Of a stretch of 64,000 nt of DNA, positions 5,563 to 60,620 are shown one piece after another. A program made the position numbers and the translations under genes. The stretch is from Phoronis australis (Eukaryota > Animalia > Phoronida). The stretch covers positions 713,397-777,396 of the forward strand of contig NMRA01000158.1 in NCBI GenBank assembly GCA_002633005.1, read 5' to 3'. Under the pieces are notes generated by a model. That model was not told where the DNA came from. It saw only the letters and a program-made list of their open reading frames with translations, and searched no databases. How positions within the stretch are numbered: the stretch's first letter is position 1; every line of letters begins with the position of its first letter.

Positions 5563-8500
5563 GCATACATATACATACATACATAATTATATAACATACA
5601 TATACACACATATACATATATACATACATACATACATACATATACACACATATACATACATACATACATAACATACATATACACACATACACATACATAC
5701 ATACATACATATACATACATACAGATACATACATATACATACATACACATACATACATACATACATACATATACAATTGTATGTATAGTAAGCACACTTT
5801 CAATGACAGGAGCATCAACTGACCTTTTAACGGATATTGAGACACTATGTGTACAAAAAATTGTGTGAAACCGGCTAGCAATTTCAGACAAATCGACGGA
5901 CTCTACCCAACTAAACTGTGCCGTCGAATTCATGTTGTGTAGTGGATTTAGAAACAACTTACAAAATTGAAAGCTGTGAACATATCAACTACATAATGAA
6001 TCAAGTAAAGTTGTTGATCTCCTTTGCCCGTTTATCGAACACATGATTCACTTTTGCCACTTGTTGGATTAACTATTTTATATCCCACAAATGTATGATC
6101 TGCAATGCAACACCGTTGACGCATAAAATCTCACCTGTTTCAGGCAAAAACAATTGCCAAATTAGACCTTTTTCCAAAGGCTTCAAATATTGTTGTGAAT
6201 GCCCATATTTTTTCGAAACATTGGCTGGTGGTAGATGTGGTCCGGTCGCCCATTCCACGACAATGACTCAAGTTCATTTTTTGACTTAAGTCTAAGATTT
6301 GTCTCAACTTCAAAACTTTGTAATTTCCACATGCGGCAAGTTAGTCAAAATTAAGACAAAACTTAAGTCGAAGACAAACTTTCTTGAAACAGACTTGAGA
6401 CAACTTAAAGTTTAATCTTAAAATTGACTGAAATTTAAAATTTGTCTGGGCTAAATCAGTTTTCTTGAAACGGGCCCCAAAACGTTAAACTAATAACCGA
6501 TTGTTAGGAGCTACTTAATATATTTTCTGAAAAAAATGTAAAATTAATTTTTACTCGTCTGCCACACTGTGTCCTAATTAATTTGGCAAGATTTTACTGT
6601 AAAAAAGTTCATATAAAGCTGCGTCCTAAGGAAATAATACTTCCAAAGGAAAGGGAACAGTATCAGGCTGTAATCAGTGCAACGGGCCCAGCCCTCTTGA
6701 GTGACCAGCACAGGTCTGTGTGCCAGACCGCCAACAATTATAATTCTTTTATGTCAGGCTGTCAACTAACATCATTTGGCATAGAAAAAACATCATACAA
6801 ACATGCTGGCACTTCTTGGACCCAGTGACAAAATGACGTTACATAACTGTCAACACAACGTTATGCCGACTACTCACCAAGTGTACAGTGTCGCCCCCTC
6901 CCTTCAGTGTCGAGATGGCCGTGGTGTAGTCCACGTTCTCCAGTGAATAGCCATTCACACTTAGCACTCGGTCATTAATTCTGCCAAACGACAACAAAAT
7001 AGCAATTGAAAATGCTCAGCACGCAACAGATAAAATCCTAGCCCAAGTAAAAGCATTTAACCCAATTAAGCGTAATACCTAAACCTTTATACAACATTTC
7101 TGGTTACAGGTGTTCCAATACAAAAACAATTTGTTCGTTTTAAATACAAGAGCAATTACGTAAAGAAAATGAATTTCAGATATACGTTTCAAAGCAGCAC
7201 TTACTGTAGCTTTCCCTCAGCAGGCCCAGCTTTGAGAACATCAGATATAGCTATGGATGGGTCACCATTAGCGAAGTGGGGGTTGTCACGGCCACCGCTG
7301 ACTGCTATCCCGAAGCCAAAGCCGGGCATTTTCGTCAAGGCAACATTGTGCGTCTCCCAGATGACCCGCTCCCCAATCTGAAACAATTCATCAGGAAGCT
7401 GTGAATTAACATGTTTTGTTTGTTTCTTTCATATGCTGGCTAAAACAAAAGCGTTTTTGACTGTGTTCTGGTTGGTAATGAAAATGCCAAGGTATGGAAA
7501 TGGTTGTTATGGCCACCTTGATGTTGACAGATGAGATAACCCAAAACTGCTGGAGTTTTCTTGCGTGCTTTTGAAGCGAAATCACTTCCACATGCGTAGA
7601 GATAGAGTGCCTCTATTTATTGTATTAATGAGTACATTACAGAGTGAACATAGCCTCGCTTTAAAAACGAAAAGGGCAGTGAAAAACAAAACTTATTGGC
7701 AAAAATTACCCTTTGTGGGCTGGCTAAAATATTTGCACTTTCACTGTTGAAAACTGCTAGTCTTCTCACCACTCCTGTGAACCTATTAAATGCCTGACAA
7801 AATATCTAACAATACACTGATAGCTCTATCTTTTGGAAGAAACTTTCATTTCTTCAAGGCCCATGAACAAAATTGTAGCAATCTAAAGTTTTGTTACATC
7901 TATAAATAAAGGTACACTTCTCCCAGCTGAAATTGCCCGTGTTATTAAGATTGTTTTTTAGCAGACAATACCTTTTCAGTAGACTGAGTTGATTATTTAC
8001 AACAGTTGGTTATCGGTCGATATTAGGATGTTTACTTGACTGTTGATCTAATATTTCACGTGACATGGCGCTATGCACACAGCTCAATCTGACATAGCAT
8101 ACGACCAGACAACGATCTCAAACCACCACCCGTTTTTGAAGCAGAGCTACTACCGCGGGATCATCTTGCGTGAGATCAGTTTGCACCACATTAGTTACTC
8201 AAATGAACACAAGGGGGTGTCAAGGACGTAGCAATATTCTCACACAGCTGTCCTCACTATCACACCACTTAACTCATTACTAATACATTTCCGTATGTGT
8301 AAATTACATAGCACCACTTAACACATTGCTTGAGATATTGTGCATATGAATTCTAGATAGCTAAGCAGTAGCACTATACTTTTAGACACCTAACAAGGCC
8401 CTAGAAGGCTCCGTAAATGAGAGCCGACGAGGAGCATAGTGCCCCGTGAAAATTTCCCGTGTTGAAATTGCCTTCTTGGAAATAAAATACAAGAGGCCCT

Positions 8501-11500
8501 ACACGTTATCTCACTGAGACATTATTAAGCAGCACAGATCAGTTGGGTCACCACAACGGTGCTCAAAATGAACATGGGACTCCTTTCCATACTCCAACAC
8601 ATTAGAGTACAACACAGGCAAAACTAAATAACAAGACAGGTGTTTCAAGGATTGCTTACTTATGACTAAGGAGATTTCAATGTATGCATAAACTGACAAG
8701 ACACATACTGATGTAAACAAGGAATGAGTTGAAACCATGCCAGCACTCCCTTTCATCTTGTCCTTGACACTCTAAAGGCGATTTTTTTTTCTGCATAACC
8801 TCCGAAAAAAATTACGAAGAGATCGATTTGTCTCACAAGACGAAATCCATATGACGAGACTGATGTCATGAATTTAGCTGCTTAGAACAATAATTCTGTC
8901 ATCCAACTTTTACGGCAGAGGGTATTTTGTGCCTTTGAACTATAATAACTTCTGTCCTTCTGGTAGGACAACTTTGCCCAATCTTGCCATCAATACACCA
9001 TAACTGTGTTATGGCTGGCGATGGAACTTTCATAGTACAAATGTTAAGCGCCACCTATGAGTAACAATTTATAAGGATGAACAGCTAAAGAGGAATTTTA
9101 CAACAATTTTTTAATTCTTAGTAATAATGCTGCTTTAAAATTACCACTGTTGTACTGTGACTTACAAAAATGTCAACAGTATGATGTATTCAATGCTGAA
9201 AGAATTTATCTTTCATCTATGTCAGACTTGGTTCATCTTATCTTTAGAACAAGGAGATTAGATCTAGTGGAAATTGCTTTCAAGATTTCAATGCCATTCA
9301 TGAAGACTGGACAGACATTTCATTCAACTGGTCTGTGGTTCTTCTTCAATGTATTAACATTCAGTGAAGCGTGCCTGGTTCAATAGCTGAGCTTAAACTA
9401 GTACAGGCCTAAGCTTATTTTTAATACCATTTAATAGGCAGAAAAATTGTCCGTTCAATCATCCAACTAGAGAAAACCATTGTGCACCTAGTCTACAGAC
9501 AGACTCCATACAGGAATTTTGAATAGGCACAGTACTTAACTCTGCATGATGCCCAAGTCGACTCTGAAAACTAACAATAATTCAATTTCCCTTTCATCAA
9601 TGGACACACTGCTTTCTAACATAAAAGGATAAGACATAACTATCTGTAGCTGTGGTACAAAGGTGTGCGCTTTGAGTTAGTTACACATAGGTACAACCAA
9701 GGACTAGCATGACTGCTGTTGCCATTTAGCCGGCATCATGTGAGTCAAACTGCCCTGACGGGGCAGCACTAAGACAACCCGGAACAACATATAAGCTGTT
9801 GCCATTAAGCCAGCTTCATACCCTAGAAGTCAATGACGCTGCTGCCATGCAGCCAGTGTTTCATCTCCGCAAGAAGAACAACACCACCACCTTCCAACCA
9901 GGCCCTGCCGCTCATCCACGTCCACACCAACCACAGCAAGGACAGAGGGCGAGATCGACCAATCTTGCAAAGCTGTCCGAGGGCTTCGCCCCCCCATCTA
10001 CTCTACTAGTACTAGTCACACATAGGTGAATGATTATCTAAGCCATCTACAGCTTGCCTGGCCCGTATTAATCAGCACCACAGAGTAATGGTAAATAAAA
10101 CGCCTAATCCAGAGATCAACGGATTTAGCACCCACATCCACTAATAAGCAACCAGGTGTGAGCCTTTCATTCACCCGCATGTAATCCATACATCTGGGCT
10201 AGTGCCAGTATATCAATCCTTGATCTGGGGCACCATGAAATGTAGAAGCCGCCTAATGACATACACAAAGTTGTACCTGAACAGAATCATCTGAACCTGC
10301 AATAGATGCACTGTCCTCTTCCTCTAGTCTCATACTAGCGCAGCACCTCAGCTCTACATCTAGAGCCACTGCAACATAAACCTGTCCATGTTAACTGTGT
10401 GGAGTCAATCCTTCAATTGGAGCCAATATGTTATATTGCCAAATAAATACCAGTCTATATTTGAACAACAGCACACAACAAGCTATTCAAACACCTGCAT
10501 TATACCACATACCACAGTTATTTTAGTCTAATGTTTGATAATAACATGATCAATAGGTTCTTGTTTCCGATTTGCAACATAAAATGTTATATTCTGATCA
10601 TAAGAAACCTGGGCAAGCTAGCTAAGCTATTAATTAAACTAAAGAAATAAAAATCGAGTGAAAAAATCGACTGAGTATTTCAACTTCAACCAACAATTTT
10701 GTTGAATTTTGCTCAATTCAAAAACACTAAGCATGAGACTGGAGCTATACGACAATATTGCACGCTGAAAAGAGCTTCCGGTTCATTGCCTCGATGTACT
10801 GAATAATCTACAGAGACTGTCTTCTTGCCATGTGAGAAACACATTGAAGTGCAAGTGAGTGTTTTTCTTTCCTGATGAAAGAACAAACACATGGATTGTC
10901 TGCAAAAATGTCTAAGCATAATGAATCAATGAGCTGTCATATTGACCAAGGTATATTCCTTTATACAAGCTAATTTCAATGGACAAATTAGAGTGCTCGC
11001 CAGGACATCAGGGGAATTCACAGGATACAATCTATAGGTAAATGAGTGGAATACTATTACAAGTGGACAGAGAATAAACATCGATATAATGTTCTTTCAT
11101 GCCAGATTGTTTTATATCAAACTGAACATACGTCCAACATAGAAAATTCTAACAGAAGAAGACTGTGTGCCAAGACTGGATGATATAAGTAATATACCAA
11201 AGCCAAACCACATTAATACCATAAACAATCGAATTAACGCCCACAATCATGTAAAGCCAACCAGGCAACCCCTTACTTTTGCTCACTTTCTATTTCTGAG
11301 AAATTTCACTTAAGCGCCGACTGCTCAAGCTAGCGGCCCTCTTTATTTGGTTCACCACACTGATTTTTAAGCAAAATAAAGTAAGGTTTCATATAAGCCA
11401 GAACATCACATTCTGTTAGTGGCTATGCCAAATGCATTAAACCATGACTGTGAATTTGAAACAGACAGTTACCTAGACTACTTGTCAGCTGTAGACTCAC

Positions 11501-23500: not shown

Positions 23501-26500
23501 TACATCACAGCTAATTGGACAGAAATTAATGTCAAACCTGCTGTTTGTGATAGTTCAAGGGCCTCTAACAATGATGGTAATATCACCAGCCAGATTTTTA
23601 ACTGTTGTCTAGAGGAAGCTATGGTAAAGCTACGTATTTTCATTAAAAAATGAGGAAATTAGCACTCTAAGACCATCTTGTTGTGTCCAAGAGATGAAAT
23701 TTTAACGTTGCGGTCCAGTTCCATCCAAAAGCATTTAAGTTGGGGCTTCATGGCATACTACTCTTTGGAGAATTTCATAAGTGGAAAAATGCCTAAAACA
23801 CTCTAAGAGGAGGTCTAACAGTGTTGATGAATGCATAATTTTCACAAGAGAACACAAGTTTAACTAACCAAAAGTCGTGGAAAACCATAAAAATGTATGA
23901 AACATCAAGAACTGCTTTTATAACAGCTTGAAGGAACAATCAAAGGACAGGAAAAATCATTGTGATCCAGAGCCATTGGCTCACACTCCATCTCAACCAC
24001 TCACAGACAGACTTTTGTACAGTCCATAAAAACAAAACGCAGCATATCACATAACAACAGGTAGATACGGTATGACAGTAAACCATCTGCCCATGGGAAT
24101 TAGCATGCCACTCGAGCATCCACGGATGCAAAATTCAAACAAACGTATGAAAAATCTCACACTTACTTTTCTAAGTCGTCTCCTGTTTTGGCTAACATTC
24201 CTGCGAGCCCGAGAATACGGCAGGACAGTCATTGAGCCGCCAATCCGTTGACTGTGTAGATCTAGATGGGGGCCAGGCCCAAAACGAGGCAAAGACGAGG
24301 TCGAATTGGCTCGACTTCGGCGGGAATTGTTATAATGGTAGTCGAAATGTTGTGGAGGGAGGTAGGATTGTGGTGCGTCATATCGCTCATACATTTTGAT
24401 TTCCCCCTGAATCAACAAGTTAAGGGTTGCCTGTCACTCTGAGTTTCTCTCTCCTGATGGCAACTAACGAAATTCCTCTAGCAAGTTTTCAACAGAATAG
24501 CAAGGTCATTGACAGAGAGGGTACGATTCTCCAACTCTCCGCCAACCAAACAACCCTGCGCTTTGCCTGAGACCAGTCATAACCTGTGATACATGGATTC
24601 CTAGTATGATGGATGACACATGTGCAAGATATCAGTTACAAGGCCAAGAACAAGCAGGTCTCTGGCCATCCAGAGATTATGCACATCACAAACTTGTTAA
24701 AACCAAGCTAAGTCCTGTGTTCTACCGTCCACCATAAGAAGCACAAAACCACAAATTGAAAGGAGTAATCTGGAGACGAAGAGCCAAGCTTCCCAATAAG
24801 TGTCATACAGGTCAGATGCTCCGCCACTAAATCCCAAGATTCCCGTAGGTTCCAGCATATAATCCAACAGCAATAGTAACTGCAGGAAAACCCTCCACAA
24901 CTGAAGTTGCCAGATGCCAGTAAAACTAACAGGCAATTTCACCCGCCAAAAGTCAAGGAATAAGATAGTCAGAATCCGCACTCTGGCTGAGGTTTGAGCA
25001 TGGAGCCAGAGTGCTGCCAAGGCTGTTGGAAAAATGAGGACAGCTGAGTTAACGAGCATTTATCCCTGGCCAGGGATGGAAGGTTGTATTCAACTCAAAC
25101 TATACAAGCACAGGCAACCATGACTGACTAGACTACACCAAGGAATGTGGGCACTTTCCTGTTTCCAACAATTCCAATCTGTTACCAAACACATAGACCT
25201 TGCCGTTGGACAAAATAACACCTATTTAATGGTAGATTCCCCTCTGTGGTCATGGCTAAGTGAACTAGGCCAAGACCAAAATGCCTCAAGAACAAACCAT
25301 GACAGATGGGCATAATTTAAATGCCAACTGCAGGTTATCAGTCACCACCAAAACATCAAATGGTAAAGGTGCACATGACATTGCCACAGGAAAAGTCATT
25401 TTGTCAGTGCATCCCACACCCCGAACAGTACATATGAAGAACTTGTTAACAATAAAATTTTTACAATGCAGTGTTACACTAAAGTGATAAGTACAGGCCT
25501 ACAGAGCAAACCATGGCAACAAACAAAACATTATTTTTATTAAGTTTGTTAAAAAATTTGATCATGCAAATATTTTAGCATAGCAAATGTGAAACAGGTG
25601 GACAAATTCTTGGCAGTTCACACCCCTTGTTTACCATTGCGTCATTACCCCTCCCTGTTCTAGGAACCTATTACTCACCTTCTTCTAGCAAATCAACCGT
25701 CACTAGTAAGAAAAACTTGTTACAACTATTTTATAGACATAGGCAAATCGCAAAATTATAGTTGACATTTTTGAACACCAAATGCAATTTCATGCAAAAT
25801 TAGTCGGTCGCTTGTATAAAATATATTTATGACTGAAGGCAAACTGATATCAATAACTATTATGTTCAACGGGCACAACCCCCCCCCCCGAGATCTTGCC
25901 ACTCAATAATGCATTTTAGGCCATCTTATTTCAGGACACAGACGCATAACATGTTTTGGGTATACTTTAGCTGTTTTTGCCACTAAGACGTGCATTTTTC
26001 TTACATGAAAAGTATAAAGTCACTTTTCCCAGATAAGTCTATAGCCAGCCTCAAGTACCTCGTCAAGATCTATTTCATGAGAGTGGCTCAAGATTTATAA
26101 TAATAATAAAAATTTGGTGTCTCCCTCCCNAGCAAGATATCAGTTACAAGGCCAAGAACAACCAGGTCTCTGGCCATCCAGAGATTATGCACATCACAAA
26201 CTTGTTAAAACCAAGCTAAGTCCTGTGTTCTACCGTCCACCATAAGAAGCACAAAACCACAAATTGAAAGGAGTAATCTGGAGACGAAGAGCCAAGCTTC
26301 CCAATAAGGGTCATACAGGTCAGATGCTCCGCCACTAAATCCCTAGATTCCCGTAGGTTCCAGCATATAATCCAACAGCAATAGTAACTGCAGGAAAACC
26401 CTCCACAACTGAAGTTGCCAGATGCCAGTAAAACTAACAGGCAATTTCACCCACCAAAAGTCAAGGAATGAGATAGTCAGAATCCGCACTCTGGCTGAGG

Positions 26501-29500
26501 TTTGAACATGGAGCCAGAGTGCTGCCAAGGCTGTTGGAAAAATGAGGACAGCTGAGTTAACGAGCATTTATCCCTGGCCAGGGATGGAAGGTTGTATTCA
26601 ACTCAAACTATACAAGCAGAGGCAACCATGACTGACTACACTACACCAAGGAATGTGGGCACTTTCCTGTTTCCAACAATTCCAATCGGTTACCAAACAC
26701 ATAGACCTTGCCGTTGGACAAAATAACACCTATTTAATGGTAGATTCCCCTCCGTGGTCATGGCTAAGTGAACTAGGCCAAGACCAAAATGCCTCAAGAA
26801 CAAACCATGACAGATGGGCATAATTTAAATGCCAACTGCAGGTTATCAGTCACCACCATAACATCAAATGGTAAAGGTGCACATGACATTGCCACAGGAA
26901 AAGTCATTTTGTCAGTGCATCCCACACCCCGAACAGTACATATGAAGAACTTGTTAACAATAAAATTTTTACAATGCAGTGTTACACTAAAGTGATAAGT
27001 ACAGGCCTACAGAGCAAACCATGGCAACAAATAAAACATTATTTTTATTAAAAAATTTGATCATGCAAATATTTTAGCATAGCAAATGTGAAACAGGTGG
27101 ACAAATTCTTGGCAGTTCACACCCCTTGTTTACCATAGTGTCATTACCCCCTCCCTGTTCTAGGAACCTATTACTCACCTTCTTCTAGCAAGTCAATTGT
27201 CACTAGTAAGAAAAACTTGTTACAACTATTTTATAGACATAGGCAAGTTGCAAAACAATAGCTGACATTTTTGAACACCAAATGCAATTTTATGCAAAAT
27301 TAGTCGGTCGCTTGTATAAAATATATTTATGACTGAAGGCAAACTGATATCAATAACTATTATGTTCAACGGGCACAACCCCCCCCCCCGAGATCTTGCC
27401 ACCCAATAATGCATTTTAGGCCATCTTTTTTCAGGACACAGACGCATAACATGTTTTGGGTATATTTTAGCTATTTTTAAGACGTGCATTTTTCTTACAT
27501 GAAAAGTATGAAGTCACTTTTCCCAGATAAGTCTATAGCCAGCCTCAAGTACCTCGTCAAGATCTGTTTCATGAGAGTGGCTCAAGATTTATAATAATGA
27601 TAAAAATTTGGTGTCTCCCTCCCACTTCACAATAGCTGAAAAAAGTTCAACTAAGTAATTAAGACCGCATCACAATCTAGAAATAATTTATAGACATTAT
27701 CTCAACAACTAAATGTTTTTTCATTCCCAGACACTTTGCACTTTTGCTAGTGAGATATTTTTTTAAAAAATAGTTGTGGGGAACGCGATACCAAATTTCT
27801 AAGTTAAGTCCGAAGTCACTTTTCAAGAAACAAAACACCGTTCTTAAAAGATTTTGGCACGACGCCTCTCTAACCAGTGATATACTGGTGATCGGATTCA
27901 TCATTTCCTGCCAGCAGAGAATGTATACATTACATGGCTTGCCTCAAATGTAAACATGTCTGCACACAGCAGGCCAGTAAAAAGTAAAACATGCAATAAA
28001 GTCTGCAGAATATGACTGGCATGCTGACATAAACATACAATCTAGAGGAATACCAGAGAAGTTCACAGGCCTACCACACTCATTTGGTTAAACATCCATA
28101 TCCCAATTTTCAAAATTTTCACTTTGAAATGGCCAAGATTAGTCAAGCATACGCTCACAAGATTAATGCAGACAGGACTTTTAATTCCTTGAAAGCACCA
28201 AGACACAACAACTTCATGAAGTTTCACCCCTACTAATGCCCACAATTCGTTACCAGTGCATTTTAATCTCGAGTTTTACTTGAATATCGACAGGTGAGAT
28301 AAAACTCGCTCAACTTTTCAAAACATTTTCTTTGTAAACGCTCATGCTTGGTTTAACACCCACATTTTGATTCTTGAATTTCTCAATGCTCAACAACCCA
28401 GGCAATATCCCGGACGAGTACAGTACATATCAACAACACTTGAAGAAGAGGTTTTGGAGGAATAAAGGAACAAGGGTAGACCCAATGATAACAACAAGAA
28501 TGTTATCTGGTGATTTGACAATGTTATGACTAAAGTTTGAACACAGGGATAACACTGACAAAAACATTTCACAATAAAACACTTTAATCACTATCGCTTT
28601 CAAATGAGCACCGTGAATGCAAGCAGTTTTTCATTTGCAAAAACTCTAACCAGGTACACAGGTGGGCTATCCCTGTAGGTGATTTTTTTTTCTAGCAGTT
28701 GGTTTGGTTTCCTCACCACCCAATTTACTTTTACGTAAAATTAAGTCAAAATACTTCACTCTCAGCTATCAATTACTGCAACGAGAAACAAATGCTTGAT
28801 CATGTCTGTGCATGTGCAACTAATTATATCCAAAATTGGTGAGATTTTATCGCAGAATCCAATGATAATGTTTTTGGCAAAAATGGTCTCTAATATAGAA
28901 CTTTCCCCTACAAACACCCTGTGTAACTACACCATCGCATGTGGCCATGACATTTAACCTTGACATTATCTTGTATTTTCCCTTAATAGGCATGATGAAA
29001 TATTAGATTACCAAAATAGTACTTTACAAGTAACACCAGCATAAATAAACTTGAGTGTGATCATTTGCTGTCACAGTTATTCTCCAGTTGTCAATGTTTT
29101 TGGTTCAACCCAGGCAAATTCATAACAAGTCAGGGTGAGCAACGTTAACACATAAATGTATCAGACATAATGACATTCCTTGCAAAAACCCCAACATGTC
29201 CAAAGAAAATAATGTCAAGTCACAAATCTTAACAGGAAAACTTGTTGATTTACAGTTAAACACCTGAATCACTTGCATTAGTAGGGACATAATGACTAAC
29301 CACCTTAATCCAAATATTTCAACAAGTCTTCCACCTACAAACCAAGTGTGCAAGCAGCACCACCTAGTGACAAGATGAGGAAATGAAATTTCTGATTTGA
29401 CACCACCTCAGTTACTGAGAGTTACAAATGTGATTTCAATGTGCAAGTCAAATGCAATAACATTGAAAAATAACACAATAATAATATGAATATTGCTATC

Positions 29501-32500
29501 CAGGCCTTTATGCACCTTACGTCCTGGGCGTCCTAGCACTAATCCGGAAGCCCTGGCAAGGACGCCCTGGCAAGGACGCCCAATGTATCATTTGGAGCCC
29601 ACTGTCAATATGAACCTTTCAACTTTGGACTCACACATTGTAATGAATACTAGGAAGACTCTGAAGGCTCACAGTGGGGGCTCTTTTTTCAAAGCAGGAA
29701 GAAATATACAATGTATATACAAAGTATATGCATTGTTGCTATTTTGACACTTGATTGACAGCATTATAAAAGTCTTGATCTAGCTTTTTTAGTAAAAATG
29801 CTCACCATAGAAGGCTGTTTTATAAACTTAGATGTAAAAACCTTGGTCTATGCATTTTTTGTAAAAAAATCTGTGTGTTTGGGGGTATTGCTGGGGGTGG
29901 GGGGTTACGCGTCGGAATCATGGACGCCCTGGAATATTTGGAACCCCGTTTTGGACACCCTATTTTCAAAATCTTGGATAAAGTACCGTTGCTATCTATG
30001 GTGGTTGTAAAGGGTTTTCAGTCTGAACTCTGTGGATGGAGTAATTGTAATTTCTGTCAATAGAGTTAATAAAAGATAATAACTATCGACGCAGTTAATG
30101 AGATATAGTACAGGTAAGTCTCTCAATGCAGTTAATAAGTCTATTGATAGACAGTAACTCTATTGGTCATTGCACTGGATATTTTTTGTCCAGTCTTAAA
30201 TAAGATAGTAATCTTATTGATCATTTACTGATAGTAACTATGTTGATATAGTTAGGACTAGGACCACTACAGCCAACGTAAATGACAATAATAAAATTCA
30301 ACGGATTCAAAAAACCACCTTGCGTCAAAATTTTAAAGTTAATCTATCTACTTTATTTCCATCTAGCTGGAAACTTGAGCCAAAACCAAGCAAGTAAAAG
30401 CTTTTGCAGAACTCTATAATAAAAAACAAGTTGTTACTGGCACCTCTGAGCTTCTCGTTTCAGACAGACATTTTGCCCCTTGGCTTGTGCTAAATTCGGA
30501 TTCTATTTTATAGGCAACCATGACAGCTAGGAATTTTTCATTTCAGAAAGTGAACATACCTCCTCAGTTTCTTGGTCAATTTCAAACATTTTCAATTTCT
30601 CTATTTTTTCTTTGTGCCGCCTCACTGGAGATCGCCCTCTTTTCCGCTCGGTCTCTGGACTGGAACTGACGTATTCATTCATTTCTTGATCTCTGCAAAA
30701 GGGTGTGATTGCAATAAACAACATATTAAAGCTCCATGTAGTGCCACCCTTGAAAAACATTATAATTGTGGTTTGTGTTTTCGTGTGGAACCATTCGTAT
30801 CGGTACTTTAACTCAGCACCATTGCCCCTGAAAGCACATGACAATAGAATAGCCTGAATGGAATTCATTGGCTGCTTCAACTGAAGATTCACTGCCACTG
30901 ACTTGATATATTCCACTTTCAAGTTCCTAGTTTAGGCTTGACCTCAAAAGACCTGTGTAGATCATTAATACAATACTAGATGTTGGAATTAAGAGTTTCA
31001 AAGAATTGAAGATGATACACCAGCATGGCCCTTATTATCTTCAAATCAACACGGTTAATTTTCACAATTTCAGCGAGAACAGTAAAAAAGAGTCGACTCG
31101 AAGTACTGCAGGTATTTGGGCCAAAACATGATCGTGAAATATTGCTCTGCTCAGAATCACAATAACATTTTAACAATTCTACACAATGAAATCAAAAATT
31201 TTTAAAATGATTCAAACATATATGACCAAGACTTACTAGACTCTTAATGTAAACACACCTTCACTTTTAAAAACTTAGAAATCATAAACACTAGATAAAA
31301 ACAACTTGCTTTAAGTACCACAAACAATACGAAATGTGATGACTGCTACCCTCTACAGTGAGAATCCGACACTAATTTACCACCAGCAGACTTACAATAT
31401 GAATATGAAAACTACTGCCCTCTTTTGTAAGGGATGAAAGGATTAATCTCTAGGCATCTGCACATCAATTTTCAAATATTAATCTCAAAACTCTACAAAA
31501 CCCTGCTTAATGGTTAAGTACATCAGAAGGTCTTAGAAAGACAAAATGTAGGAAGTAGAACTCGTGATATTTGCCTGAAGAAGGAAGCTACCACTTGACA
31601 GTGGCGGCACTTGATCGACTTCGCCAGTTCTGCCTGGTCAACTGGTTAGCACATCTGATTGGTTCTCTATGACGACTTCTGGCTTACAGACCAATGAGAT
31701 GTCTTAGCCGATTGACCCAGCAGAAACAGCGAAGTCGATCAAGTGCTGACAAGCGTTAAAATGTAAATTGAAGACACAAGTTTTTAACAAATCAAATTAC
31801 ATTTTAGGCAGATCATACTTCGCTCGGGCATTCATAACAGTAGCTGGTACCACTAGAGTGACTCGTTTCCCTGTAGTCGCTTGACCTAAGCTGCCCCTTG
31901 GTGATGGACTACTTTTCTCTGTAGCAGTCTGAGTGCTGGTACAGTTCTCATCACAGCATCCATTTGGTGTTCCATCTTTCTCCATAGGAGGGGCATTTTT
32001 TCTCACAGTCTTGGCATTTGCTTCAGGGCAACAGTCCTCCTCAGCACCCTTCAATACAATGACTTGCTCTCCCAAGGATGGGATATGTTTGCCAGGGGCC
32101 TGTACTCTTCCACCTTCCTCTACTCTAGTACCTTTCTCTTTCATGGTTTGGGCCTTGTGGACACAGTCACCTGTGGTTCCATCATCTTCCATTAAAGTGA
32201 CACATTCACTCATGGTTGGTGTACCCACCTCACAGTCTGCCATCATTCTTCCTCCCTCTGCTATAACAGTAGGGCCCCCGTCGCCACAGTCACCTGTTCC
32301 TTCGCCTTTTACTATGGCAACAAGCTTCCCATCACCACTGGCCGTGGTCCCACAACACCTCTCAGGGGGTGCGCCACCTTCCCCCGAGTCCTCTACCCCC
32401 ACCGCTACACACCCAGCTCCACCTTCTCCATTACAACTGGACCCTTCAAGTGACACTTGCAACAAATTGTCTATCAATTGCTGAAACGTCTCATGTTCTT

Positions 32501-35500
32501 CACAGCCTTCCGTTTCCATCTCAACAATCGGTCTACTTCAGGACTGCAGTATTTCTACTTCTCCTAATTTTCTCTTGCGTTTCTAAGTCCTAATAACTAC
32601 CATAAATCACACAACACTATGTGGTCCCACAAGATATCATTGTGCGAATGACTGGCCTTGCGAAGACTCAAAGAGAGTGGTCTGGTTGTGACAAGAACGG
32701 ATATCTATTGACATTACGTCTGGCAGCCAAAAATGAGGTAGTTAAGAAGATAAGGCTTGCAACTTAAGTTCAGTCTTGCCATATACTATTGTAATTAGCC
32801 AGATTTTGATGGACTATTATGTTACAGAATCTTGTTTTACTAGTCTGGATATCTCAATGCAGAGTAATTAAAGACAGGGTTGGAAGGTCTGGCTAGTGTG
32901 CAGTAACACTGATGTTAAGGACTCATTAGCAGTCATAGACTTCTCAATGAAATATGATCTTTCTATTAAAAGTCCAAGACTACAAAGTTGATAAAACAAA
33001 TTCAGATAAGAGTAAATATTAAATCATGTGATCCACTAGATGTATAGTTCATTATCAATGGAACAAACTACACAAAAGTCTTCCTTAACACAAAGTCAAT
33101 ATGCGCATAGTGATGACGTTTTTACTGGTCAAATAGCAGGTTAACCAGCTGATTCATCACAATAAAAGGGCTAAACAGACTTTGAAGATACCACCCTAAA
33201 ACCAACACTGTTCCAAGAACCAGTTATTAGTGGCGAAATGTGCAAGACATTGTGGATGACTGAATCATCATTCAAGTACAACAGCACACTGACACATTAC
33301 AGCTGAGAGATTTGCAAAGACCCTGATTTTAGATTTTGAAAAATTGTGAAATACATTTTTTCTGTTTTGTAAATAAGCAAATTCCATATTTTTTCGAAAT
33401 ACTTGCCTTACTCTAGCCGTCACTATCAAAAAGGATGTACAACTACTTAAACATGTGGACTACAAAGGTATCATTGATAGACTTGTGGACAGAATCGGTC
33501 TCATTTTATCAATTTGATAAAATATATTTCTAACTTTTTGGTGATATTAATTTTAAAGAGACAGAAATATTATATAATTATTGAAACTGAAACATGTGAA
33601 TTCCACTTCAAACCGGCAAATATGTGAAAGAACTCCAATTTCGTAATTTCTGTCCCTCTTTCGTTATCACAGAACAACAAGGTCTCAACAAGAAAAGAAA
33701 ATTTACCCGGGGGGTAGGGGTCCCAGGGCTTTTCTTCCAAATAACGGCTATGGTTTGAAACTGCACATGCGAAGTCCAGACCAATGAAATACCACCCACA
33801 GCAACCAGGACGGTGGGTCCCCGAGACAATGCCGGGTAATGAAAAAAGACCAACTACCCATACAAGATATAAAAAACAATTTACCTAGATAAGACAATCT
33901 GGCACAGAAGCAAAATTATGAACTCAAGAGAATACTAGAGAGGGTAAAATACCTACCTGAGTTGGCATCGCGTCCCCACCACTCCTTCCTCATATGTGAA
34001 ACCCTCCCCCAGTAACTGGTGCCTATTCTCTACCCCTTACCTGTTACTCATTTTCTGTGCTTTAACTGCAAGGTTCTCTAAACTCTGTATAGCTTTATCT
34101 CGCTCATTCTTCATCTCCTGACACTGTCTCACTGCCTCATCCCTCTCCTCCACGGCGCGTGCATTCTCCCTCAGAACAGCGTCCCTTTCTTTTAAAGCCA
34201 GCTCAAAACCCAACTGAAGAGCTTGTGTGGGGCTTTTATCCTCAGAGCCGTCCTCTGTAAATAACAACCACACTTGGTCACTCAACAGGTAGGAGTCCTA
34301 TCCCCAATAAACCACATGTGGAAACCAAATCTAGACAGGCATAGTCTTCACATGTTGATGAGACATGCCAAGAAGAGGTCTGGTCAGCTGAGTCATCTAA
34401 ACAGTGGATAGGGTAACTACCGGTACCATCAAAGTATCAACCACCCTCTTGATAGCCTTTGGCAATAAAATGTCAATAATTGAACCAAATCCTCCCCTAC
34501 TGCAATGAGAATTGATTCGATTGATTAGAAAAGGAACCTATGGACCATTGAAGATCAGTACTGGGCACAAAGGTCATAACAAACAAAGACACTAAAGAAA
34601 CATCAAAAAGGCAATCACAAGACATGGGAATGAGGCATTTTACCTAAAATGAAAGCAAACAATCAGAACATGAAGGTGAAAGTTGAATTACACAGGTGTA
34701 GTCACAATACAGAAAGAAAACAGTGCTCAAACTACCAAGATAAACAAGGAACTATGCACGCACTGTACAACATTATGGAAATCATTTCTTGATAATCTAA
34801 ATTCCTGTTTTCTAATGACAAAGCACCAGATTAGCCTCACTTTTCCAATATCATCCATAGTTCTGTGCCTAATGCAACAATTTATAAACTGTTTTCAAAA
34901 ACTCTGAGAAGCTAAAATGGACCCCATGTTTGGAAGTGAAGACATATATTTATATTTAGCTATGCACTTTAAACCTTACTTCTCTTGGTTAGTGCCCTGG
35001 GGGCTTGAATTTGATAATTTAAAAATTACAGGGTGAGCGTTCATGGAGCGTGGGTGCATAAAACCGAAATTTTAAGAAGTCAGGAGTGGGCGCTTACCTG
35101 AACAGTCACTATGGGAGCTACTTTGATGTCAGACTTTAAGTGTAAGAGTTCAATAAATCATCAACGAATTGTAAACAATGTGACAAGGGGCTTACCATCT
35201 AGAATGGAATAATCGCGCGCACAGCAGTTCAGTACCTTTGTTGCAATAGCTTTTTACATATCATATGACACTCGAATGATTGTTTTCCCTAGTTCTGCTA
35301 GGTGCCCCTAGTGTTGTATGATTCTGTTTGATCGCAAGAGGTTGCTTTGGTCAATGAACTGGAAATGAATGTTTGGTAAGAACACTTTTGAATTCGCTAA
35401 TAAATTTTAAGACATAAACCTTACACACTTATTAAGTTGCTGCTACCTGCGCGAATGTGTTCACCATTTTTTCACATAATTACGATATTATTAGAATACT

Positions 35501-38500
35501 CATTAGCCAAAAGCATACCGCAATTTACTCTTCAGTAAAGAACGCGACAGAACAGGTGTTGTCCTGGCCGCACAAGGCAAGATTCCATTGAAGCTGGCTG
35601 ATCGTTACTCAGAGATAAGAAGGTTGCAAATTTTTATGACGTAAAATTTTGATGGGCATTTTTATGAAAGTGGGCATTAACCCAGAGTACAGTTGAAAAA
35701 AATTAAAACCGCAATTATTTGTTACCAATTTGAAGGAAACTGGTCTGCCTAATTTCTATTTATTTGTAGTGCCATATTTTGCCAGGTGTTGCATGACAAG
35801 GTAGGTAGAAAAAATTAAAACCGCAATTATTTGTTACCAATTTGAAGGAAACTGGTCTGCCTAGTTTCTATTTATTTGTAGTGCCATATTTTGCCAGGTG
35901 TTGCATGACAAGGTAGGTAGTTGAAGATAGTTCTCGCTTTGAATTACAACCACTAACACATAGTGACAAGACGAATTTGTCAGTGATCAATAATTCACTG
36001 GAAATTGCAATTTTAATGATCTCAATCAGATAATATTTCTTAGACATATCTTGGTATAAAACATTTATCTTTGAAAGAAATTTGCAGGATCAATGAACAG
36101 AACTATTTTCATTAAGAAGTATCTTAGTAAATGTAATTTACCTTAAAACAGTGTAATTGGCTGGGAAATTGAAATAAGTAAAACTTGATATGAAAATTTC
36201 ATTTGCTGAGGTTGAATGGCAATAATTGAGCATCCCATCTCAAAACTTTGCAGCTTCAAAAACTTTCAACAAACGATGTTTTTTCTTGTATTCGGAAATT
36301 TTATCAACTTAAAGACCCTTGATGCCTTAAAGTTGAATTTTGTCTGATACCAATTCATCTACTGGCTAAAAAGGTATTGTTTTCACTAACTTTTTTACCA
36401 GTAGCGAAAACGCCAATATTGTGAACGGTTGCAAGAAACATTTTAGGTGACGTTTTGCTACCAGTTGATTTAGCATGTGCTGCTAATAATTACATATTGG
36501 TAAGCAGAGTTTACTTCCAAGGACTTTGATAGGCAAGGGAGAGTGTTCTTCACAAATGAAAACAAAAATTTGTCAGAAGTACACAGACACCATCAAACAC
36601 GCAAGAAGGGCAAATGTTCACAGTTGTGCGCATTTACCAGCTGAAGATTTTATGAACTGAAGACACTTTACAGGGAGTACCTAGCAGTAGTGCTCACGAC
36701 TAAAAATCCAAATGTGTCGGAAGGTCATTCTTGAAAACGTGATTGCAAATGCCTTCTAACAAGTTGGGGAAACAACAAGCCATGAGGAACACTGATGACT
36801 TTGCTCATTAGAGTTTATTGCAGAAAGTAAGCCCACTTTAAAACCAATAGCGATTCATGCTTTAAAACCAACATTGGTAATGAGAAAACAAAATTAACTG
36901 TTGAGGAATAAAACCAATTTGCCAACAACATGTCTGTCTGGCTTAAGTTCCTGCATTTTTTTCACTGAAAAGCAGCAAGCTTTCTACTCATTTGAAGCTA
37001 ACTTTATTGTTCCAGGCCTTGTTGGTTTATGGTGCTGTATTCTTAGCTGATGCTACAAAAACAAAACAAACCAATTCAAAACCCAACAGGCACAAGAACC
37101 CAACTGCATGAGCCAGACAGAAGAATTCATTCACCCTGTGCACTGTCACCATCTGTTTAGCTCAGTAGCACTCAGGCTGTGGTTTCATCCCCAGGAATCT
37201 CAATGAGTCAACCATGACTGCAACCTGATACTTGCACTACATAATGTGACTAAGTGGGTTTTCTATGACACTTTTTAACAAAGGAAGGCAACAAATTCAT
37301 TGGGGTTATTCTCTGGAATTAGGATTCAATACGGGGTGTCTAGAAACTGATCCAAAACTTCTTTTTTACAATTTGTCAAAACTACAATAAGGGTTTTTAA
37401 TATCAGTTATACAAAACATCAGTTGAACATGGAAAGTACTCAATTTTGAGAACGAGGCAATCTCATACTATTTCTGGATTAAGGTCTTGACAATTTGGCT
37501 GTCCAAGAATCCCAACAAAAGAAATTAACACCAGCACAAAAGGCTGGTGATTCTGAAACAAACCCCTACAAAAGCGTGACTTTTTCATGGAGACTACCTA
37601 CAAGTGGGTCCCCCTTTTTGTTCAATTTCTAAATTGGTGGGTGTCCTTTGTTTCCAGTCGTACCCCTGCGTCAAAAAATATAGCTGATTACCTTCAGGTT
37701 ATTCCAGGTATATCATTATTTGCACCAAAACAAAACTGGATGGTTGCTTAAGGCAGAGACCAGGATTTAGAATTAACAATTGACATTCTTATTTATAATC
37801 TGCAAAAGGATTAGCAGTGACAAAACATTCTGACACTCAGAACTTTATATACAAGCGATCAGATGCTGGATTTCAAACATCACACGTGAACAGACGAGGG
37901 GGTCACTTTGTCATTGTTTTTTTTTACTTTTTCACGCAACTTTAGATGAGCGGAACCCGTTCAACAGCAAAAAAATACAAAATTATGAGTTTTCAACTGT
38001 TTAAATGTACATCATACCAACTGAGGTCACCAACTTTCTGAGGGCTACCCCACTTGCACTGCATCCATCTGAGTCAGGTGTGTAATTGTACCACTGACCA
38101 CATCAATGTCTTACTTAAATTTCAATAATTCTCAAGCTGAGAAACGCTCGCCGATGTTTGTGAACCGCTAACAAGTGAACTGACAACCCATGCCTGATAC
38201 TGTGAAGCGTAATACCAGAATCGCTATCAACATTCCACAAAATAATTGAAGCACTAAATAATCTATTACTACTCACTTTACACCCATGGGAGCGGAAATT
38301 GTAACTCGGCTGCGATACATATTTAATGATTCGATCTAAAACCTTTGGTAGACTGCACTGGTCTCCTTGTACCCTACATGTGCCTAAGCTGATCTGTTGG
38401 TCCTTGGTTTTAAAAAAATAGTTTTAGGTTGGTACAGTGTGTTAGTCAGAGATCATACAAAGACATTGGGTTAATAATTAATTGAATCTGCAGGGGGTGT

Positions 38501-40044
38501 TTAACCAATTTTAAACACACAACTGCATCATCACGCACAATGACAAAACTTAGCATCAACTTTTAATAAGCAGAAGTTAACATTAACGCTCAGGTATAAT
38601 GTGGATACTGAGAAAATGGTAATAGTCCTGCATTATGAGAACCAGTTTTCTCCACTGAGTAAAGGGCATCAAACTGGTTCTCAAAATACAGGACCCCAGT
38701 TAGTGACTATTGACAGCAAGGCTTGACGATTAGCGTTACGTCAATTCCACAAATACAACCTGACAAAATTTCCAGCTGGCCAAATGGGATTTGAGCTTGC
38801 CAAAACAAGGAAACCTATATGCAGTCATGTGAGAGTCCTGCAGGCCTTCACTCACTAACAATATACAGTTGTGAATGGAAAAACGAAACATCTGAATTGA
38901 CAAAGTAGAAAATTTGAAACAATAGCTAAACGCAACGGGCAAATATCCGCCCCAAAACTCAAAAACGCCCCGGCAGTAGAATGAAAAAAATACATATAAA
39001 TCTTATGCACAATGACCATTGATTTCACATTTGGTTGAGCAGAAGTAGGTATGCGTCATGGTCGGACCCTGCTAGTTTCGACCAACTCCCGTTGCTTCAT
39101 TTCTTGTAGTAGTTTGGGTGTGTGATGAGAGAGGCAGATAGGCAGATGTACTCATAGGATGTCCAAAATGGCTTTCCCAATTTCTCGGCATCCTTGACCA
39201 ATGATCTGTGTGACAGCATTTTTATTATCTCAAGTCAAATTGGTAGTATGGTATAGTATATTACTAGGACCACATGGTTCTGCACTAAAGTTTTTGCATC
39301 TTACATCATTTTTAAGTCATTTTTATTATGCACAGGCCAATGAGCTCCCACAGCTGCTGCTGCAAGTTACTAGAGACAACTAGGCTCACTTGCTTACTTT
39401 ATTTGGGCGTCCAAATGTTGAACAAGACGTCCTAACGATAGGTAAGTCAAGTAGACAGGTGCCTCATGAAAATGGTTGCTGGTGCCGTTATTAGGTGAAA
39501 ATTGGTTCCCAGTAGATATTTTAAGAAGGAATCATTTACTTGACTTCTACCAGTGCAACGGTGTCTAATTTTGAATCCAATTGGCATGTTGCAATTGCCA
39601 AACGGTTTGCATTCTTCACTCTCAATCTGGGAACCCCGTCTCGGAGTCCAGACTTTTCAACACAAGTTACAACGTAAGTCACTCACTGAGCTGGAAGTGA
39701 ATTAGAGGGTGCATTGCAATGAATTTCAACTGTAACCTGTATAGGTCTATTTGTAAAAACTTACCTGGGCTATCTAAAAGGAAGCACGTCAATAAATGGG
39801 GGTATTCCTGTTCAACTGATGCGCAAAACTCTTGAAATGCGGACTGTCCTTTTCGGGAAAGGATGTCAACAAACGTCTCTGTACAGGTTCTTGGATCTGA
39901 ATTGTTTAAAATTTCTCTCTCCTCCAGTCGGCTGAACACTCCTTTCCGAACTAGTTTGGGTAAAACATGATTGACATCCAAATCTCTTATTATAGTAGCC
40001 CGGTGCTTTGCAAGCAGCCGAGCTGAGCCTCCTCTGGCCGACAT
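341..40044 (-). CDS. TJP1: Tight junction protein ZO-1-like MAGUK with N-terminal CARD and coiled coil (5' part; continues beyond left edge)
   Basis: Coding exons (minus): 40044-39765, 34254-34041, 30692-30560, 7377-7205, 6980-6878, 5016-4926, 4681-4578, 3930-3783, 3266-3045, 2182-2089, 491-341. All are GT-AG with matching phases (1713 nt = 571 codons). PDZ1 '[50 protein letters not shown]' is the ZO-family PDZ1 signature. PDZ2 '[31 protein letters not shown]' and PDZ3 '[36 protein letters not shown]' follow in ZO order. Joining of the three upstream exons is inferred from phase only. Confidence 0.85.
2089..3266 (-). CDS. TJP1: ZO-1 PDZ2-PDZ3 proline-rich linker exons (3266-3045, 2182-2089)
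   Basis: [11 protein letters not shown]...[14 protein letters not shown] and [30 protein letters not shown]. Phases 1/1 and 1/2 bridge the flanking PDZ exons. Confidence 0.8.
3783..5016 (-). CDS. TJP1: ZO-1 PDZ2 exons (5016-4926, 4681-4578, 3930-3783)
   Basis: VIRRKII...[77 protein letters not shown]; matches the ZO PDZ2 layout. Confidence 0.92.
5510..5775. repeat. (TACA)n degenerate microsatellite
   Basis: Long run of atac/acat units; explains the spurious MYVC-repeat ORFs. Confidence 0.95.
6280..6478. mobile_element. MITE fragment of the GGGGCCYGTTTC-ended family
   Basis: Ends ...tcagttttcttgaaacgggcccc and has internal GACTTAAG/AAGACAAA motifs shared with copies at 47309-47550 and 52121-52321. 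Confidence 0.55.
6878..7377 (-). CDS. TJP1: ZO-1 PDZ1 exons (7377-7205, 6980-6878)
   Basis: [35 protein letters not shown]...EGKLQ + [34 protein letters not shown]; canonical splice sites. Confidence 0.95.
11700..12112 (-). mobile_element. Penelope-like retroelement 3' remnant (GIY-YIG endonuclease C-terminus plus terminal repeat)
   Basis: ORF peptide [23 protein letters not shown]...[21 protein letters not shown] fits the Penelope GIY-YIG tail (HF...H...E..WI..L.T..P.GLN). Downstream non-coding part is repeated at 13325-13410. Confidence 0.8.
11738..11778 (-). ncRNA. Variant minimal type-I hammerhead ribozyme motif (Penelope-associated)
   Basis: UUGAUAA-A-GGAAGU(UGUU)ACCUCC-GAAAAUUU: U3:A8 covariant core, stem II, GAAA and palindromic AAUU stem III. 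Confidence 0.5.
12628..12880. repeat. Degenerate ~145-bp tandem repeat (two units)
   Basis: 'gtgaacttttcata..tctagagtaatgagagtgtgaaagtgactg' versus 'gtggacttttcatg..tctagagtaacgagagcgtgaaactgactg'. Confidence 0.6.
13325..13410 (-). mobile_element. Second copy of the Penelope terminal segment with hammerhead-like motif
   Basis: Near-identical to 11704-11790; UUGACGA-A-GGAUGU(UAUU)AUAUCC-GAAAAUUU with a fully paired stem II. Confidence 0.6.
15488..15675. repeat. (CA/TACA)n followed by a ~70-bp direct duplication
   Basis: ggatatgcagacagaagcttatggggtca..tacagtcat..cataaaacctgacga occurs twice. Confidence 0.8.
18461..18690. mobile_element. MITE with ATTTAG(C/G)ACACAGTATGGCAGAC-type termini
   Basis: Inverted termini aatttagcacacagtatgaca / gtctgccatactgtgtgttaaat. 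Related ends occur near 6555-6580, 16433-16460 and 56003-56030. Confidence 0.55.
19457..19529. repeat. 24-bp tandem repeat x3
   Basis: ggcaaacgc(g/t)atcaaaaagtttga repeated three times. Confidence 0.9.
20205..20500 (-). mobile_element. Decayed 3' end of a non-LTR (L2/CR1-group) retrotransposon ORF2
   Basis: Peptide [13 protein letters not shown]...KRLSAC....[14 protein letters not shown] resembles the LINE C-terminal 'LA.LR.G...L....RLC..C...EDE.H...CP.Y' zinc knuckle. Confidence 0.6.
20523..21059 (+). mobile_element. Non-autonomous DNA transposon with TIRs carrying a frameshifted THAP domain
   Basis: TIRs AGGGCCATCCTGGATTACA / TGTAATCTGGGATGGCCCT. Internal [14 protein letters not shown]...FFTF(fs)...[18 protein letters not shown] from 20687. 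Confidence 0.7.
22095..22330. repeat. Purine-rich ~30-bp minisatellite
   Basis: Units like ggagacaccaagg(g/t)gaaagggaaacccca, about seven degenerate copies. Confidence 0.85.
22438..22782 (-). CDS. Candidate alternative first coding exon C (115 aa, three W-[NQ]-R-x-x-I-L repeats)
   Basis: ataATGg start, 345 nt to tct|gtaagt (phase 0). A second possible phase-0 donor gag|gtaaat lies at 22588. Both fit the PDZ1 acceptor. Confidence 0.55.
24167..24394 (-). CDS. Candidate alternative first coding exon B (76 aa, [11 protein letters not shown]...RRRLRK)
   Basis: aaaATG start, 228 nt, ends at a consensus aaa|gtaagt donor. Phase 0 fits the PDZ1 exon acceptor at 7377. Confidence 0.6.
24624..27623. 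repeat. ~1.5-kb tandem duplication split by a single N (24624-26129 / 26132-27623)
   Basis: Near-identical copies with scattered SNPs/indels; junction at N 26130. Confidence 0.9.
29500..29990. mobile_element. Probable non-autonomous DNA transposon remnant
   Basis: Sub-terminal GGACGCCC motifs clustered at both ends; weak inverted termini caggcctttatgca / tggataaagtaccg. Confidence 0.4.
30560..30692 (-). CDS. Charged linker exon between coiled coil and PDZ1
   Basis: [44 protein letters not shown]. Phase-2 acceptor cttttgcag; phase-0 donor gag|gtatgt matches the phase-0 PDZ1 exon at 7377. Confidence 0.75.
31607..31746. repeat. 140-bp fold-back inverted repeat
   Basis: gcacttgatcgacttcgc...gcgaagtcgatcaagtgc, arms pair over ~60 bp. 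Confidence 0.85.
31801..32519 (-). CDS. Candidate alternative first coding exon A of the ZO-1-like gene (239 aa, G/C/E-rich)
   Basis: 719-nt ORF from gagATGg ending at at|gtaatt. Phase 2 fits the 30692 acceptor. GC-rich, coding-like island in an AT-rich intron. Confidence 0.55.
34041..34254 (-). CDS. Coiled-coil exon of the ZO-1-like gene
   Basis: [71 protein letters not shown] has heptad-like ERD repeats. The phase-1 acceptor (ttatttacag) fits the CARD exon; phase-2 donor ag|gtaagg. Confidence 0.8.
35695..35920. repeat. ~113-bp direct tandem duplication
   Basis: aaaaattaaaaccgcaattatttg...catgacaaggtaggtag twice, almost identical, with no N. Confidence 0.9.
38625..38694. repeat. 70-bp hairpin / mini inverted repeat
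   Basis: gtcctgcattatgagaaccagttt ... aaactggttctcaaaatacaggac. Confidence 0.75.
39765..40044 (-). CDS. CARD domain exon (first coding exon of the long ZO-1 isoform)
   Basis: [93 protein letters not shown] has the CARD pattern (HR..I..DL...L..L...GV.S..E...I; DIL..KG..AF..F......YP.L). Acceptor ttttcttttacag at 40054-40055, aaaATG start, donor g|gtaagt at 39765 (phase 1). Confidence 0.85.

Positions 40045-53916: not shown

Positions 53917-60620
<6,704 letters not shown>

Follow-up and report, generated by a model that had tools for sequence, protein, structure and literature searches.

In Phoronis australis, the gene for an orthologue of the junction scaffold ZO-1 begins with an expressed CARD and coiled-coil front end, encoded by three exons that are spliced onto the ZO-type PDZ1 domain within one gene. 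It lies on the minus strand of contig NMRA01000158.1 (GenBank assembly GCA_002633005.1), in a window of 64,000 nt (forward-strand positions 713,397-777,396 of the contig) that comprises the whole stretch of DNA analysed and to which all coordinates below refer.

The first coding exon (39765-40044; 280 nt) contains the ATG and the whole CARD in 93 codons, and ends in a phase-1 donor. The second (34041-34254; 214 nt, 71 codons, phase 2) specifies a coiled coil in which a heptad listing displays three ERD repeats, spaced 14 residues apart, and the third (30560-30692; 133 nt) a charged linker that joins PDZ1 from a phase-0 donor. With phases 1, 2 and 0, GT donors and AG acceptors, the three exons add 627 nt, or 209 codons, and the frame stays open without a stop into the exon for the first half of PDZ1 (7205-7377). 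These four exons match, in order, one annotated ZO-1-like protein of the brachiopod Lingula anatina (XP_013406126.2): the CARD with 66% identity (residues 1-93), the coil with 78% (residues 97-165), the linker with 51% (residues 173-204) and PDZ1 with 88% over 57 amino acids, although this half of PDZ1 alone scores below the cut-off of the Pfam PDZ model (E 4.6e-4). The corresponding identities with an amphioxus ZO protein are 60% (CARD), 63% (coil) and 62%.

Further downstream, the second half of PDZ1 (6878-6980) was located by tblastn with Lingula ZO-1, in frame and with GT-AG borders. PDZ2 (3783-5016) is distributed over three in-frame exons (5016-4926, 4681-4578 and 3930-3783; 52-83% identical to Lingula ZO-1 in tblastn). 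The proline-rich linker between PDZ2 and PDZ3 (2089-3266) comprises exon 3266-3045, 43% identical to Lingula, and exon 2182-2089, placed by frame and splice sites only; a putative exon of 39 nt at 1301-1263 is a guess. The first part of PDZ3 (341-491) aligns with Lingula ZO-1 from residue 523 onward (tblastn E 5.5e-18). The three upstream exons and the nine ZO exons from 7377 down, the putative one included, encode 584 amino acids without a stop as far as the start of PDZ3; the PDZ domains in this stretch come in the same order as in the Lingula and amphioxus ZO-1 proteins, at 47-88% identity. The gene leaves the window beyond 341, and the SH3, GK and ZU5 domains, which are present in the closest homologues, would lie outside it.

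Transcription of the joined exons was assessed in three raw-read RNA runs (X1, X2 and X3) and one contig run (X4), chosen by species label; the counts given here rest on 18-19% of each raw run. The joint 39765>34254 is covered by three reads in X1 and three in X2, and the joint 34041>30692 by two and four reads, respectively. Five X2 reads, in complete agreement (1.0), run past 30560 with 30 letters identical to window positions 7348-7377, the start of PDZ1, so that all three joints are read-supported in X2; X1 has no listed loose end at 30560. RNA depth over the linker exon is 3-8 and is confined to the exon. In X3, the linker exon has a depth of about 4 and the CARD and coil exons zero, possibly a matter of sampling, and the X4 contigs include none on the exons, which says nothing either way. 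The sampled part of the runs contained no read spanning all three joints. First mates map to the plus strand, as expected of a transcript from the minus strand if the libraries were stranded in the usual way. The initial annotation had predicted from the sequence the 1-2-0 chain of three exons into PDZ1, and had named junction reads as its check and transcripts from the CARD exon ending before 7377 as the outcome that would make the CARD a separate gene. Sequence and RNA joints agree on the chain, and the joint from 30560 to 7377 speaks against such an ending.

Other potential starts were sought around these exons. An open frame at 30931-30527, considered as an extended first exon, was rejected, since depth is near zero at 30691-30752 and only one or two reads lie upstream. 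On the minus strand of the 23 kb intron before PDZ1, three frames run from an ATG to a phase-0 donor: 24394-24167 (76 codons), 22782-22588 (65 codons) and 14619-14542 (26 codons). Judged by frame and donor, they could be candidate alternative first exons for PDZ1; the two of the three that were scanned gave no Pfam match. At the thresholds used, no frame leading from an ATG to a donor in fitting phase turned up in the two upstream introns. A 246-codon open frame (31797-32537, minus strand) in the intron that precedes the linker exon has no Pfam match and no listed joint.

Two other genes lie in the window beyond the CARD exon, both on its upstream side. LEO1 (40524-49915, plus strand; Pfam Leo1 on three exons) presumably starts at the ATG at 40524 and would thus stand head to head with the CARD exon, its ATG 480 bp from the CARD ATG at 40044. 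A bidirectional promoter may therefore drive both the CARD isoform and a housekeeping gene, and LEO1 at that distance leaves little room upstream of the CARD exon for further exons. Beyond it, a MYST acetyltransferase gene (53917-60200, minus strand; Pfam MOZ_SAS E 1.5e-36) is one we take to be KAT5/Tip60-like. A tandem duplication of about 1.5 kb (24624-27623; 96-99% identity) and a repeat, almost exact and several hundred bases long, that flanks an N at 41272 on either side (40739-41995) are possibly assembly artefacts. Short repeats at 38632-38696 and 29500-29980, which draw very many mismatched RNA reads from elsewhere in the genome, are likely dispersed transposon fragments.

The first exon encodes a CARD. 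It matches the Pfam CARD model (PF00619) with E 2.4e-15 and 56.8 bits (cut-off 23.9), and its predicted structure is a six-helix bundle (pLDDT 87). In a fold comparison of this model, all the top matches are CARDs, the best being the Apaf-1 CARD (Z 15.1, rmsd 1.9 Å, 90 residues aligned); matches within one Z unit of it, including the MDA5 and caspase-9 CARDs, are ties, and identity with Apaf-1 is 13-19%. Foldseek with the same model returned nothing at E 0.001 or better, though the rows it listed were CARDs, and a protein atlas search gave generic CARD clusters only. Both the HMM and the structure prediction, the tests of the domain suggested at the outset, thus identify a CARD death fold.

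The nearest named family is the CARD of DLG5 (profile-profile probability 99.5, E 2e-22), with which a signature in helices 5-6 is shared. Searched through a very large library, the CARD exon scores best on DLG5-type CARDs (42-51 bits); on single solved chains it reaches 17.4 bits with CARD9, 16.6 with Apaf-1 and 14.6 with CARD11. A profile of ZO CARDs gives 57-79 bits on DLG5-type rows, 45 on Apaf-1, 39 on CARD9, 35 on CARD11 and 22 on BCL10. The description of the domain as CARD9/11-like in the initial annotation is consequently weak: CARD9 and CARD11 score no better than Apaf-1 and far below the DLG5-type CARDs. Conversely, among CARDs a DLG5 CARD profile gives its highest scores to CARD11 and CARD9 (38.9 bits), once the top rows of that search, summed repeat matches with zero significant stretches, are disregarded; this ranking would leave a common origin open.

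We inferred two trees of CARD domains, a careful one of 45 chosen rows and a larger one, by a quick method, of 151 rows, left after 39 near-duplicate or repeat-CARD rows had been dropped from 190; neither includes a CARD9 or CARMA sequence. The ZO-type CARDs occupy one side of a branch with 98/94 support in the careful tree (25 of the 45 rows) and of one with SH-aLRT 97 in the larger tree (117 of 151). The rows had been gathered by likeness to the window CARD, which favours a ZO clade, but every named full-length member is a ZO protein. The window CARD is sister to the Lingula ZO CARD (98/87) and falls with the ZO rows, apart from the DLG5-type CARDs, which form their own clade (99/98). The ZO clade reaches from brachiopod to mammal and is distinct from the DLG5-type clade, while the joining of ZO and DLG5 into one CARD group obtains a support of only 47/75 in the careful tree. 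A further clade (100/100) consists of small unnamed proteins (P0017, P0061, P0084 and P0133), mostly with two tandem CARDs, that share a YPHL-type end with the ZO and DLG5 CARDs.

CARD-bearing ZO-1 is widespread. Over the CARD exon, identity is 66% with Lingula, 60% with amphioxus and 53-54% with teleosts. XP_013406126.2 and the Branchiostoma floridae protein XP_035670919.1 have, like the Phoronis gene, the CARD, the same short coil, the linker and the PDZ domains; the Lingula, amphioxus and teleost proteins continue through three PDZ domains, SH3, GK and ZU5, an order also found in dog and deer mouse. The Lingula and Branchiostoma models are automatic and named simply ZO-1-like, and we found no account of their CARD in the literature searched. 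In Lingula, the CARD is an optional front end, present in four of the 12 isoforms read. Named full-length CARD-ZO models also occur in two snails (Littorina below the Pfam cut-off) and seven wasps (two of them flagged with PF00619), so that the suggested search of invertebrate ZO orthologues for CARDs was positive in brachiopod, amphioxus, snails and wasps alike. In a vertebrate-focused search, the best 120 of 152 matches are all of ZO-1 type by name or architecture, 106 of them with a precomputed PF00619 match, and represent at least 12 mammal genera, four bird, three lizard and four frog genera, sturgeon and many teleosts; ZO-1 models that retain the CARD come from animals as distant as brachiopods, wasps, dogs, cats and bats. 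Human, other primate and Mus sequences do not figure among these 120 of 152 matches, nor named cnidarian rows among the matches listed, which does not show absence. Judging from these comparisons, CARD-ZO-1 is not an invertebrate oddity.

Fragments limited to the CARD or to CARD and coil are found in a millipede, a centipede, a barnacle, planthoppers, Aplysia, an annelid, whales, a hamster, the Komodo dragon and a manakin. The stand-alone proteins from whales, hamster, Komodo dragon, manakin, planthopper, centipede and annelid are named hypothetical, "caspase-2-like" or "DEATH-like". By sequence, these nine entries of our analysis set (P0094, P0145, P0152, P0183, P0184, P0204, P0070, P0078 and P0083) group with the ZO CARDs, and they are likely split-off first exons of ZO genes.

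One vertebrate form has been cloned. Zebrafish tjp1b has three first exons, one of which gives rise to ZO1b-Alpha, with a CARD (PMC10703405). The view that characterised vertebrate ZO-1 begins without a CARD is contradicted by this isoform as well as by the models across jawed vertebrates. As in Phoronis, the CARD of ZO1b-Alpha sits at an alternative 5′ end and is spliced via linker exons to PDZ1 (PMC10703405), and the teleost CARDs, with the identity given above, belong to the same clade; the vertebrate forms differ in a basic extension before the CARD and in having no ERD coil after it. ZO1b-Alpha is described as mainly non-neuronal (skin, otolith, jaw), and the available text of that paper offers neither a function nor an evolutionary treatment of its CARD (PMC10703405). 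Already known, then, are the zebrafish CARD (PMC10703405) and many database models; under-described are the bilaterian-wide conservation and the short coil that gives a DLG5/CARMA-like order. We found no invertebrate, mammalian or bilaterian-wide account of CARD-ZO in the literature searched, outside which most subscription journals lie.

The combination of a CARD and an ERD-repeat coil on a ZO scaffold, noted at the outset as DLG5-like, is borne out by the exon chain and the heptad listing. DLG5 likewise has a CARD, then an ERD-repeat coiled coil, then a MAGUK core, but its coil is long, it has four PDZ domains and it is drawn without ZU5 (PMC4046881), whereas the PDZ exons here match ZO. The coil exon is predicted to form a helix of about 50 residues, and in a model of the Aplysia fragment the CARD is followed by a loose linker and then a single helix (106-156; pTM 0.48). 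A two-copy model, made on residues 1-166 of the Lingula protein and not on the Phoronis one, features a parallel coil in register (102-159) that CARD residues 86 and 89-90 contact, with a pair score of 0.53 against 0.00 for the best control, contact agreement between runs of at least 97% and pLDDT of at least 82. Of the solved pairs, 21 of 30 attained the mark for a dimer, and of the animal pairs 7 of 16; none of the 23 single chains did so, and only one of seven eukaryote pairs without an older solved relative. The Lingula result may possibly be a memory of the solved CARD9 CARD-coil dimer.

These data suggest how the front end might work. The CARD, coil and linker exons would be spliced onto PDZ1 as one of several alternative front ends; the coil would pair two ZO-1 molecules, as in the modelled parallel dimer, where the final CARD helix rests against the beginning of the coil; the CARD would add a CARD-to-CARD contact, with itself or with a related CARD such as that of DLG5; and this contact would cluster the scaffold at epithelial junctions. 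We give this proposal, of pairing by the coil and clustering by the CARD through an alternative front end, an even chance of being right. Alternative initiation in Phoronis australis, the location at junctions and the partner of the CARD are inferred here, and the first is supported by the Lingula isoforms, the three zebrafish first exons and the linker-only reads in X3. DLG5 is reviewed as self-associating via its N-terminus (PMC4046881), and by analogy the ZO front end is likely to be a pairing and clustering device too. The ERD coil is found in Lingula, amphioxus, snails and myriapods and was not seen in wasps or vertebrates; between CARD and PDZ1, ERD is missing from 127 of 134 long rows, as was also seen by eye. 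Because the CARD persists in vertebrates and wasps without the ERD coil, dimerising via the coil cannot be the general reason for CARD retention, and the loss of the coil in these two groups shows that the role of the CARD is independent of it.

The CARD could instead recruit a CARD-bearing caspase or an apoptosome-type partner, and so couple the state of the junction to cell death or extrusion. Insects have CARD caspases, with which the retention of the CARD in wasps is consistent; Apaf-1 comes first among solved structures with the ZO-CARD profile (45 bits; 38.8 with a CARD-coil profile) and also heads the fold list. Its low identity and the tied fold ranks of the MDA5 and caspase-9 CARDs detract from this, no caspase binding by a ZO CARD was found in the literature searched, and we consider such recruitment unlikely.

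In a signalling role of the CARMA/CARD9 kind, the coil would free the CARD, which would then seed BCL10-MALT1 filaments and so NF-kB signalling at junctions. Death-fold nucleation of a BCL10/MALT1-like or caspase type had been put forward in the initial annotation, and for the BCL10/MALT1 type the residues here argue against it. The order CARD-coil-MAGUK is that of CARMA1-3 (CARD11, CARD14 and CARD10), an LE..YP.L stretch at the CARD end is shared with CARD9 and the CARMA proteins, the modelled dimer with the last CARD helix on the coil loosely resembles CARD9 autoinhibition (PMC6624267), and annelids and molluscs have been reported to have BCL10. However, of the six CARD9 filament residues E15, R29, R35, D43, K58 and D66 (PMC6624267), which align to A12, H26, V32, L40, R52 and D60 of the window CARD, one is identical and one conservative. 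Valine takes the place of the essential R35 (V32 in the window CARD) in 57% of 84 invertebrate rows and in 97% of 33 vertebrate ones. CARD9 R70 is kept as R64. The basic patch of CARMA1, R35, K41, K69 and R72 (PMC3411838), is partly kept, mapping to R20, H26, a gap and C54 under an ungapped 12-residue offset if the numberings agree as assumed, and basic residues are common at positions 20, 26 and 54 across the ZO CARD family; R or K occupies position 54 in 72% of the invertebrate rows, and R in 88% of the vertebrate rows, but R or K is there in 10 of 10 DLG5-type rows as well. The LRQ motif of CARD9 occurs in none of 190 CARD segments. Moreover, the helix of about 50 residues compares with a coil of about 300 in CARD-CC proteins (PMC6624267), CARMA proteins have a single PDZ before SH3-GK (PMC2859873) against three here, and the CARD is kept in the seven full-length wasp ZO proteins, while arthropods are described as lacking CARD-CC and Bcl10 and as independent of them (PMC5978004). 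Nucleation of BCL10 by a ZO CARD is thus unlikely on the residues compared, and the CARMA-like role as a whole appears decidedly improbable to us.

There is a slimmer chance still that the CARD form is a minor relic, dispensable and without any binding function. Its read depth is low, several homologues score below the Pfam cut-off (guinea pig 20.8 bits, Littorina 16.4 bits), and in zebrafish tagged ZO1b-Alpha was not detected as protein and synaptic staining in the mutant was unchanged (PMC10703405). Yet the identity of the CARD across phyla and the invariant or near-invariant columns in the 117 ZO-type rows point to long purifying selection. The idea that the CARD and coil exons belong to a gene of their own further upstream, and that the ZO gene begins at PDZ1, is largely refuted and almost certainly wrong: the 23 kb intron does contain other candidate first exons, CARD exons are entered as stand-alone proteins in several databases and no single read crosses all the joints, but every joint has reads, X2 has them for all three, models continuous from CARD to ZU5 exist in many species and the zebrafish CARD form was cloned (PMC10703405).

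The CARD front end on ZO-1 also touches on the origin of CARD-bearing MAGUKs. By SH3 and GK, ZO and CARMA are sister groups and DLG5 is sister to both, and a sponge CARD-PDZ-SH3-GK protein was proposed as ancestral to the three (PMC2859873). Alternatively, CARMA is regarded as a vertebrate fusion of a CARD9-like protein to a ZO/DLG5-like MAGUK (PMC5978004), as also proposed in a preprint (10.1101/2023.03.06.531260). The main text of a survey of death folds, as available, mentions neither DLG5 nor TJP1 (PMC10055258). The early suspicion that the arrangement is old is vindicated by CARD-ZO proteins from brachiopod and amphioxus to mammal in one clade, and the CARD on both ZO and DLG5 favours, as far as sequence comparison goes, an ancestral CARD-MAGUK for those two families.

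The presence of a CARD on ZO and DLG5 bears on both published accounts of CARMA origin. A bolder reading, possible although we doubt it, is that the ZO-1 of the bilaterian ancestor was itself a CARD-coil-MAGUK and that ZO, DLG5 and CARMA inherited one CARD. On this view CARMA would be a paralogue on the ZO side whose CARD was retained, and not the product of joining a CARD9-like gene to a MAGUK in vertebrates; many mammals would also go on producing a CARD-ZO-1 isoform, so far unstudied, that forms death-fold assemblies at epithelial junctions. Reviews depict ZO proteins without a CARD (PMC4046881), and the conservation reported here suggests that one isoform of this intensively studied junction scaffold has been overlooked.
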